Assembly (NCBI GenBank): GCA_964383765.1
Contig: CAYLHT010000001.1
Location: 100,998 to 164,997, forward strand
Source of the DNA: an uncultured Gammaproteobacteria bacterium
GTDB lineage: Bacteria > Patescibacteriota > Patescibacteriia > SBBC01 > CAIJZX01
Length of the DNA: 64,000 nt
Direction: 5' to 3'
Position 1 is the first letter of the stretch, and each line of letters begins with the position of its first letter. The notes under the pieces were generated by a model. It searched no databases. It had not been told where the DNA came from and saw nothing but the letters and a program-made list of their open reading frames with translations. Both the position numbers and the translations under genes were made by a program. Of the stretch, positions 10,717 through 10,886 are shown one piece after another.

Positions 10717-10886
10717 GGGCCTGTAGCTCATCTGCTAGGCTTGCGTCCAGCCCCACTTCTGAAGGGCCATTAGCTCAGTTGGCAGAGCGTCGCATTCGCA
10801 TTGCGAAGGTCAGCGGTTCGAATCCGCTATGGTCCACCAGAAGTGGGGCTGGAAGGTAAGGGGTTCGAGTCCCCTCAGGTCAACCA
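10717..10886 (+). other. tRNA-Ala-like host (acceptor, D region, T arm, CCA) whose anticodon arm is replaced by a 13-bp helix carrying a complete tRNA
   Basis: 5' GGGCCTG-TA-GCTC... (10717-10746). Helix CCAGCCCCACTTC (10747-10759) pairs with GAAGTGGGGCTGG (10840-10852). 3' part is AGGTA-AGGGG-TTCGAGT-CCCCT-CAGGTCA-A-CCA. G3:U70 is present; G1/A72 is a mismatch. Confidence 0.55.
10764..10839 (+). tRNA. tRNA-Ala (anticodon CGC), CCA encoded
   Basis: GGGCCAT-TA-GCTC-AGTTGGCA-GAGC-G-TCGCA-TTCGCAT-TGCGA-AGGTC-AGCGG-TTCGAAT-CCGCT-ATGGTCC-A-CCA. G3:U70 is present. Confidence 0.92.

Follow-up and report, generated by a model that had tools for sequence, protein, structure and literature searches.

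How does a complete transfer RNA (tRNA) gene come to lie inside another tRNA gene of the same identity? The question is raised by positions 10717-10886 (plus strand) of the 64-kb stretch of DNA analysed here ("the window"), where a tRNA-Ala(CGC) gene, the guest, sits between two complementary arms, with all of this enclosed by the two halves of a tRNA-Ala-like host. The reading favored here, to which we give a probability of about 0.6, is that a palindromic element resembling a miniature inverted-repeat transposable element (MITE), with a replacement tRNA as its cargo, invaded the cognate tRNA gene; the guest would be the working copy and the host a pseudogene. A wider version of this reading has, in our judgment, roughly even chances: palindromic elements of Patescibacteria would carry whole tRNA genes into the loops of cognate tRNA genes in a serial and selfish replacement, building loci like Russian dolls, with the arms doubling as a maturation stem, and each element would be a gene-replacement device that complements its own damage, a sort of element so far undescribed for tRNAs.

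The anatomy of the nest agrees for the most part with the original prediction, which described an Ala-type host, a long helix in place of its anticodon arm, and a complete guest tRNA matching the host in identity; all three are present in the sequence (Table 1). The helix had been put at 13 perfect bp. Its complementarity is exact, the core arm CCAGCCCCACTTC (10747-10759) being the reverse complement of GAAGTGGGGCTGG (10840-10852), but the true contiguous Watson-Crick helix is 16 bp long: an outer T-A pair is added, and the TG of the TGAA linker, which lies between the left core arm and the guest, pairs with the CA of the guest CCA. The cassette delimited in this way (10746-10853, ~108 nt) is non-coding and bounded by perfect 16-bp terminal inverted repeats, as is typical of MITEs. 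The guest, presumed to be the working tRNA-Ala(CGC) gene, has the acceptor stem GGGCCAT/ATGGTCC, which contains G3:T70. The 5′ remnant of the host is without the 3′ strand of the D stem and the 5′ strand of the anticodon stem. The host retains its T arm intact, along with ACCA and six of the seven pairs of the acceptor stem; the G3:U70 pair and the G1/A72 mismatch that had been predicted for it are both seen.

Fold modeling, which had been proposed as a check, recovers the same parts. The 170-nt RNA is predicted to fold at -84 kcal/mol (z = -5.7, 200 shuffles), and the predicted fold contains the cloverleaf of the guest as well as the long helix and the acceptor and T arms of the host. For the duplex formed by the leader and trailer of the guest, the predicted energy is -40.5 kcal/mol (z = -6), vs. 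-2 to -13 kcal/mol for the un-nested tRNAs of the cluster. By these model-based measures, the nest structure is beyond chance.

Relatives for comparison were found through the csoR-like protein encoded downstream of the tRNA cluster (11098-11349), using the contigs of its homologues together with genome and metagenome scans with protein alignment. The gene has 13 homologues in a large protein collection, one of them named Candidatus Kerfeldbacteria. Among the 160 loci returned (designated here by L and a number), about 11 belong to close relatives (Patescibacteria, Kerfeldbacteria-like); most of the others are from unrelated bacteria. The window itself is bacterial, with IF-2, NusA, and trigger factor of bacterial type and 52.7% G+C. 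Synteny in the relatives places a trio of tRNA genes, for tRNA-Arg(CCT), tRNA-Ala(GGC), and tRNA-Ala(CGC), upstream of csoR-trx-trxB.

Sequence comparison with these relatives identifies the host as the resident tRNA-Ala(CGC) gene, an orthologue of their normal genes. In L004, where tRNA-Ala(CGC) is intact and un-nested, the first 18 nt (GGGCCTGTAGCTCATCTG) are identical to those of the window host, and the 3′ end (AGGTAAGGAGTTCGAGTCTCCTCAGGTCCACCA) nearly matches its 3′ 33 nt; L093 and L016 carry the same lineage, likewise intact and un-nested and with ends that match the host halves (in L093 the 3′ part is again nearly identical). Since the host is orthologous to the intact L004 gene, its G3:U70 pair is inherited; its A72 is a C-to-A change, by which the 1:72 pair is broken. 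The guest is of a different allele lineage, GGGCCAT...AGCGGTTCGAATCCGCT, which is also found un-nested in L014 and L005. The host minus its insert gives no tRNA match in Rfam, and an ARAGORN scan over 2025 deletion boundaries of the Ala host yielded no tRNA-Ala, only 11 odd calls (such deletion scans were made around all nine tRNAs of the window; their output is noisy, informative for the Arg host described below, and spurious in its calls for the Ala host). At a permissive threshold, Rfam recognizes three real tRNAs in the locus, and its matches to mir, ycf2, mascRNA, and tmRNA fall far under threshold. In the relatives the halves of the hosts decay without constraint, by deletions and extra hairpins, until in L013 they are nearly unrecognizable. 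By this comparison the helix is conserved and the host is not.

Nesting recurs among the relatives in a patchy manner: there is none in L004, L014, and L016, downstream relics only in L093, and at least one nest in L002, L009, L012, L013, and L015, as in the window. Any gene of the trio may hold its cognate tRNA, between inverted-repeat arms, in the D or the anticodon loop. In the tRNA-Ala(CGC) host of L002, what survives is the D arm, the anticodon stem on its 5′ side, and the TTCGC of the loop; a 16-bp stem, TTCGCCCCGAACCTGG/CCAGGTTCGGGGCGAA, there encloses another tRNA-Ala(CGC), and the T loop of the host has an insertion of ~45 nt. L013 has a perfect 19-bp stem around tRNA-Ala(CGC), in its barely recognizable host. 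L009 has three nests, one of them an Arg guest within a decayed Arg host. Its triple Ala nest has outer arms CCCGCACC/GGTGCGGG, middle arms TCCAGCACCAGTTTTG/CAAAACTGGTGCTGGA, and tRNA-Ala(GGC) innermost; in its tRNA-Ala(CGC) host the D arm is interrupted by CCTGCCCGCC...GGCAGGCGGGGC around a tRNA-Ala(CGC), the arms being those of the Arg nest in the window. Nesting is deepest in L012 and L015, which have 2-4 shells, lost halves, and TCCCG...CGGGA mini-hairpins inside the decaying shells (3-4 shells in L015; in L012 a guest within a guest, hairpins in the D loop of the host, and loss of its 3′ half). Each complete locus scanned with Rfam has exactly one intact Arg(CCT), one Ala(GGC), and one Ala(CGC), always innermost and scoring 54-75 bits, and none of the outer shells or hosts scores as a tRNA in that scan. 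The predicted leader-trailer duplex is bimodal across the loci: -21 to -42 kcal/mol for nested guests, -2 to -13 kcal/mol for un-nested tRNAs.

The original prediction also pointed to a second nest in the same 600 bp, with host and guest again of one identity and with flanking helices that differ in sequence from those of the first. Both statements hold: this nest is a real tRNA-Arg(CCT) within a tRNA-Arg(CCT), and the helices belong to two arm families, each of which recurs in other genomes. Its cassette lies in the D loop of the host, and deletion of the insert restores an ARAGORN-valid tRNA-Arg(CCT) across a wide range of boundaries. The D and anticodon arms of the Arg guest match the un-nested Arg gene of L015, a distant relative. 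The gene in the middle of the trio, tRNA-Ala(GGC), lies un-nested between the two nests of the window; in L009, L013, and L015 it is the one that is nested.

The distribution of arms and guests suggests that they travel as units. The arms of the Arg nest also flank the tRNA-Ala(CGC) guest in the tRNA-Ala host of L009, with relics in L012 and L015; that the Arg host of the window and the Ala host of L009 have the very same D-loop arms, CCTGCC...GGCAGGCGGGGC, each host with cargo to match, argues for arms and cargo moving together. Likewise, A-type arms with a GGGCC(A/G)T...AGCGGTTCGAATCCGCT Ala guest are found in a GGGCCTG host in the window and in a GGGCTCA host in L015. They also occur with a guest of the AGCGGTTCGAATCCGCT lineage in L012, of whose outer host little is left, and L004 keeps the GGGCCTG lineage alive without a cassette. 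The same arms and cargo in different host lineages therefore imply, by parsimony, at least two separate insertions, and we infer from these sequences that arms and cargo transpose together. Within the window, there are no further copies of GGCAGGCGGGGC and TGGNGCTGGAAGGT beyond chance.

Arms of this kind are also found where there is no tRNA. The termini TCCNG...CNGGA are common to the nest arms and to tRNA-less palindromic elements, a family found by an inverted-repeat scan together with a scan for hairpins ending in CCNG...CNGG. Palindromes with CCNG termini number 15 in the window, vs. 2-7 in shuffles, and four copies there are related: the Ala cassette and the three tRNA-less elements of Table 1. 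Among the relatives, family copies are present in L005, L006, L012, L015, L093, and L181, and the left arm of the nest, TCCAGCCCCACTTCTG, has family members among the arms of L009, L012, L013, L015, and L181. CCCAGCACCACATTGG occurs in tRNA-less elements of L181 and L006, and CCAGCACCAC is common to an L181 arm and nest arms of L012 and L013.

Several of the tRNA-less copies can be compared with interrupted and empty sites. The 165-nt element of the window lies exactly at the start of csoR, where its final A and the duplicated TG recreate the ATG; the start of csoR is uninterrupted (ATGCGTCG) in L002 and L004, and the insertion is shared by L003. In L181, TATCTTGA and TTGACAATATAC flank an insert that runs from CCCAGCACCACATTGG to CCAATGTGGTGCTGGG, with the ends CCCAG...CTGGG, and L091 has the empty site TATCTTGACAATATAC. 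Insertions flanked by TTGA, with different arm sequences, are found in L005, L012, L093, and L181 and in the window (40886-40933); in the four relatives the site is one and the same, its TTGA being part of a -35-like hexamer beside the csoR operator. Target duplications are of two kinds, TTGA at at least five tRNA-less copies and TGCG at one, with empty sites in L091, L002, and L004. Judged by sequence, the tRNA-less copies show the hallmarks of small non-autonomous mobile elements.

Table 1. Positions of the two nests, the un-nested tRNA between them, and the tRNA-less palindromic elements, numbered from the first letter of the window.
Feature	Position	Strand	Details
Host 5′ remnant, Ala nest	10717-10745	+	GGGCCTG acceptor strand, TA, GCTC, scrambled D region ATCTGCTAGGCTTGCG
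Cassette left arm, TCCAGCCCCACTTCTG	10746-10761	+	Perfect 16-bp inverted repeat with 10838-10853
Guest tRNA-Ala(CGC), CCA encoded	10764-10839	+	ARAGORN; 68.6 bits vs. Rfam tRNA (gathering score 29)
Cassette right arm, CAGAAGTGGGGCTGGA	10838-10853	+	Overlaps last two guest bases (CA)
Host 3′ remnant, Ala nest	10854-10886	+	AGGTA variable region, AGGGG-TTCGAGT-CCCCT T arm, CAGGTCA acceptor strand, A-CCA
Sister nest: tRNA-Arg(CCT) host with D-loop cassette	10305-10488	+	Guest tRNA-Arg(CCT) at 10347-10420
Arms of Arg nest	10328-10337; 10422-10433	+	CCTGCCCGCC; GGCG-AA-GGCAGG
Un-nested tRNA-Ala(GGC), middle of conserved trio	10523-10598	+	ARAGORN, Rfam
tRNA-less element, 165 nt	10934-11098	+	14-bp arms TCCCGTTAGAGATT / AATCTCTAACGGGA; TGCG repeats at 10930-10933 and 11099-11102
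Perfect 40-nt palindrome, CCCAGTCCCAGTTTTTGTTA/TAACAAAAACTGGGACTGGG	40890-40929 (with flanks 40886-40933)		TTGA direct repeats, within TTGACA box
tRNA-less palindrome, TCCAGCCCCAGTCA-CC-TGACTGGGGCTGGA	42362-42391		30 nt; outer 10 nt identical to nest arm; shares TCCAGCCCCA with it

Some further observations concern the surroundings of these elements. A predicted promoter and a CsoR-type operator (ATATACCCCCGGGGGGTATAT, 10899-10919) are now ~165 nt farther from csoR than they would be without the insertion. The 40-nt palindrome is upstream of an open reading frame (ORF) that starts at 41019. The 30-nt hairpin lies ~50 nt upstream of tRNA-Cys and is not followed by a T run, so it is no obvious terminator. 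In L012 (1640-1725), two adjacent TCCCG...CGGGA mini-hairpins, without target duplication, stand between the TAG and CTCAG of a decaying D region, and one of them has its own sequence repeated within its loop, which hints that the palindrome family prefers hairpin loops as targets. The minus-strand tRNA-Pro(TGG) of the window (30759-30832) has an 8-bp complement between leader and trailer, GTGCCCGC/GCGGGCAT, and ~90 nt downstream of it is a mini-palindrome with TCCCG...CGGGA ends, GTCCCGTAATCGGGAC (30653-30668); this site may be another old cassette, with a score that is within the control range.

Under the favored reading, in which a tRNA-bearing palindromic element invaded its cognate gene, events at the locus might have run as follows. 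At the DNA level, the cassette would have inserted where the cognate tRNA-Ala(CGC) gene has its anticodon arm. Only insertions whose cargo replaces the destroyed tRNA would persist, which would account for the anticodon that host and guest always have in common. Once invaded, the gene would be left to decay, here losing the 3′ strand of its D stem and its anticodon arm and gaining A72, and the guest could itself be invaded in turn, giving the Russian-doll loci of the relatives. The whole unit would be transcribed from the upstream signals of the resident gene. In the transcript, the arms would zip into the 16-bp stem and so isolate the guest cloverleaf from the look-alike halves of the host; the guest would then be freed by ribonuclease P (RNase P) and 3′ trimming, possibly after a double-strand RNase has cut the stem, and the host halves would be leader and trailer by-products. 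All three of the affected tRNAs have C34 or G34 anticodons. The codons of tRNAs with such anticodons can often be read by U34 isoacceptors, and the trio may be tolerant of insertions of this sort through them.

The arms themselves vary in concert. Those of the window differ from the middle-shell arms of L009 at three positions, all three of them compensated. Over the outer 10 bp of 14 members of the arm family, pairing holds in 93.6% of cells, and two-sided changes affect 8 of 10 pairs; covariation scores 0.58, vs. 0.20 for shuffles (0 of 500 reach it) and ≤0.13 with the partner slid. Counts of G:U vs. A:C mismatches do not separate selection of the hairpin at the RNA level from selection as single-stranded DNA; in this counting, duplex prediction added spurious TTGA/TTGA pairs.

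This variability is one of several points that weigh against an origin by transposition. Arms that are variable yet perfectly complementary are unlike the constraint set by transposase binding, and point to selection on a hairpin, whether of RNA or of single-stranded DNA. The covariation alignment was built by hand from arms picked for pairing, which makes its statistics partly circular and overstates independence. The junctions of the nests are without a clean target duplication: the flanks are inverted (TTCG/.../CGAA), with CG as the sole direct repeat. All copies seen to carry cargo lie within tRNA genes, and the argument for transposition of arms and cargo as a unit is one of parsimony. 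A Pfam scan of the 40 ORFs of the window found no transposase, integrase, or RNA ligase, and no autonomous element with matching ends was found. Finally, the sample consists of about 11 genomes from one clade, at what is essentially one locus.

Part of this evidence would suit a processing-stem cassette that arose once and spread by homologous recombination through the conserved flanks of its host tRNAs after DNA uptake, the stem being kept solely for folding and processing the guest inside a look-alike host. Such a history is unlikely, in our estimate, though it deserves consideration beside the favored reading or in addition to it. The window junction TAG-G-CTTGCGT/CCAGC (TAGGCTTGCGT/CCAGC) is nearly that of hosts at the Ala(GGC) position in L015 (TAGACTTGCGT/CCCGC) and L009 (TAGAAATGCGT/CCAGC), and the outer host in the window is of the resident Ala(CGC) lineage, so that the cassette and its inner flanks look co-transferred. 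The lack of target duplication at nest junctions and the compensated changes of the arms are in keeping with it as well, and the un-nested guests of the same lineage in L005 and L014 have no stem, from which it follows that the stem matters only when nested. Recombination leaves unexplained, however, why the same arms and termini are found in tRNA-less palindromes at unrelated sites with 4-bp duplications, and why identical D-loop arms are found in Arg and Ala hosts of low homology. The two accounts are compatible, since a cassette that originated by insertion could later have spread by recombination. It is harder to believe that the nests came about by local rearrangement with no mobile element at all, through tandem duplicates, unequal recombination, or template switching at inverted repeats that left partial tRNA copies around an intact one, the complementarity being a by-product. 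The locus is indeed a cluster of similar tRNA genes, and relic 3′ tRNA fragments past intact genes in L093, L012, and L095 fit repeated local replacement; but guest and host come from separate allele lineages and differ in their acceptor and T stems, so that the guest is no recent copy made at the locus, the arm families are common to several genomes and occur elsewhere in the genome, and the architecture is repeated at identical loop positions.

The original prediction proposed that the host would survive as a two-piece, anticodon-less molecule chargeable by alanyl-tRNA synthetase (AlaRS), and, with the guest excised, the helix of 13-16 bp might hold the two pieces together as a tRNA-Ala mimic acting as decoy, regulator, or module like that of transfer-messenger RNA (tmRNA). 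AlaRS does charge minihelices bearing G3:U70, and the host offers this pair, the T arm, six of seven acceptor pairs, and ACCA, in a predicted fold that retains its acceptor and T arms. Every one of these features, however, is inherited from an orthologous tRNA-Ala, the 1:72 pair is mutated, and the host halves decay freely in the relatives, with the T-loop insertion of L002 and the remnants of L012 and L013 as examples; we consider a functional composite RNA very improbable. The other outcome that the prediction had allowed for, that the outer sequence is simply a tRNA-Ala remnant, describes what is seen, since hosts never score as tRNAs and decay freely. Nor is there much to be said for an intron-like behavior, in which helix and guest would be spliced out and the host exons ligated, one transcript giving two tRNAs: we give it hardly any credence. 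The D-loop hosts (Arg in the window, Ala in L009) do form an intact tRNA when the insert is removed, and tRNA genes of Patescibacteria do carry group I introns (PMC13011429). Against this, the Ala host has no anticodon arm and its splicing would yield no tRNA, the locus has no group I or group II intron match in Rfam and, by inspection, no bulge-helix-bulge at the junctions, and older D-loop hosts are decayed (the Arg relic of L009, and L012), so that host function has not been maintained. An error of assembly or binning is a negligible prospect. The sequence is metagenome-derived, and tRNA repeats can confuse assemblers, but a Logan contig from run SRR12313480, independently assembled, is identical across 1574 nt that include the whole locus; this makes an assembly artefact, which the original prediction had named as a way in which it might fail, very unlikely. 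The nested architecture is also found, in other sequences, in metagenome-assembled genomes and contigs of other studies (at least six assemblies, from different projects).

Two other candidates were tried and rejected. For a tmRNA-like molecule, ARAGORN reports no tmRNA, the family matches score 15.9 and 9.9 bits vs. gathering scores of 47 and 84, and the gap between the halves is filled by a tRNA. For duplication of an attachment (att) site by an integrase, there is no integrase nearby among the 40 ORFs of the window, the flanks are inverted rather than direct, and a whole tRNA is inserted.

The surroundings of the tRNA cluster have features of their own. Three spaced copies of a palindrome, GTTCCACGTGGAAC, are found at 10630-10707, always ahead of the third tRNA gene (copies 2 and 3 in the window read GTTCCTCGCGGAAC); the triplet is at the same position in L002, L004, L005, L009, L012-L016, and L093, and a copy with one mismatch is at 13694-13707. 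From their sequence, these palindromes have the appearance of operators at which a dimeric regulator of the third tRNA gene would bind. The motif TTTTACGAC(A/T)C occurs at 10223-10233 and 10272-10282, and also in L002, L004, L009, L014, L016, and L093. In several relatives it is ~20-30 nt upstream of the first (Arg) tRNA, with the variants TAAACGACAC and TTATACGAC in others, and in some genomes it is also 3′ of the last tRNA; by sequence, it may be a promoter element of the clade. A scan with the sigma-70 consensus found the tRNA cluster to be without a promoter. On the minus strand (14339-15190), ~3.5 kb from the cluster, is a gene for an NYN-domain (PIN-like nuclease) protein.

Other observations come from the relatives. 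L095 has at 684-805 an exact 22-nt copy of the 3′ end of tRNA-Cys (TCGATTCCCCCCGTGGCCTCCA), ~80 nt past the tRNA-Cys gene; this is a scar typical of T-loop replacement or integration, and suggests tRNA turnover in the clade beyond the Arg/Ala trio. Between trx and trxB, L005 (2563-2910) and L182 (772-1119) have a bAvd-like gene (23S_rRNA_IVP/bAvd); bAvd is an accessory protein of diversity-generating retroelements. L002/L011 (CAZFGG010000013.1) and L014 (CAYGGC010000019.1) are labeled Gammaproteobacteria, but group with Patescibacteria/Kerfeldbacteria in gene content, synteny, and csoR identity, and on that basis the label is probably a taxonomic mislabel.

A prior description of palindrome-flanked nested tRNAs is not found. 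Full-text searches of the literature on nested tRNAs, MITEs in tRNA genes, and tRNA gene replacement gave nothing relevant. In viral contigs, the junction pattern had 10 matches, all due to chance (ARAGORN finds no tRNA on these contigs), and the D-loop arm pair had none; in a phage database the guest tRNA alone was matched, and nothing spans the nest. Standard tRNA finders report the innermost gene only, so that the shells stay unannotated. If the favored reading is true, small non-coding mobile elements can transport and replace entire tRNA genes in bacterial genomes of the most reduced kind, providing a route for the turnover of tRNA genes and for their horizontal exchange, and a selfish element has another way to make good the harm it does on insertion, by supplying a spare copy instead of being spliced out. 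The nests would also be a natural system for the extraction of a tRNA from tRNA-like flanks by RNase P and 3′ enzymes, and a test case for the form, RNA or single-stranded DNA, in which the complementarity of hairpins is under selection; the loci with several layers have a relative chronology of insertions built into them.

Several categories of known elements bear comparison with these nests. Palindromic elements of bacteria include MITEs, Rickettsia palindromic elements, REP/BIME sequences, and Correia elements. The family described here is like MITEs and palindromic elements in being small and non-coding, with inverted arms, multiple copies that share termini, insertion polymorphism, and short target duplications (TTGA, TGCG), and in that insertion into a gene is not lethal, as where the csoR ATG is recreated. 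Unlike MITEs, some copies carry a whole tRNA inside a cognate tRNA gene, and are nested recursively; further, their arms are variable but complementary, there is no duplication at the tRNA junctions, and no cognate transposase was found.

Integrative elements that target tRNA genes are another point of reference; their anticodon-loop and T-loop integration sites were reportedly classified by Williams in 2002. The nests resemble these in the tRNA gene as target, in the restoration of its function by the incoming DNA, and in the displaced fragments left as scars (L093, L012, L095). Integrative elements, however, bring a partial tRNA and leave direct att repeats, whereas here there are a whole tRNA and inverted repeats, with neither an integrase nor an element on the kilobase scale, and both halves of the host flank the guest within ~170 nt.

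Within the same phylum, group I introns have been reported in tRNA genes of Patescibacteria (PMC13011429). They share with the nests insertion into a tRNA loop, a tRNA supply that remains intact, and an interrupted gene that standard annotation misses. They differ in that the nests have no ribozyme: rescue is by a second gene copy, and the interrupted gene decays. The word "nested" is absent from the text of that report, and nested tRNAs are not mentioned there.

The intron-containing, split, and permuted tRNA genes of archaea also have halves that are separated and joined by a helix, at non-canonical sites such as the D loop. Here, by contrast, the organism is a bacterium, there is no bulge-helix-bulge, the intervening sequence is a full tRNA, and the host halves are unconserved. 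Lastly, the predicted 16-bp duplex of the nest resembles the processing stems of rRNAs and tRNAs that are cut by RNase III, in which a long duplex encloses a structured RNA for release. Unlike these, the stem of the nest comes from a dispersed palindromic element, and is absent around un-nested copies of the same tRNA.

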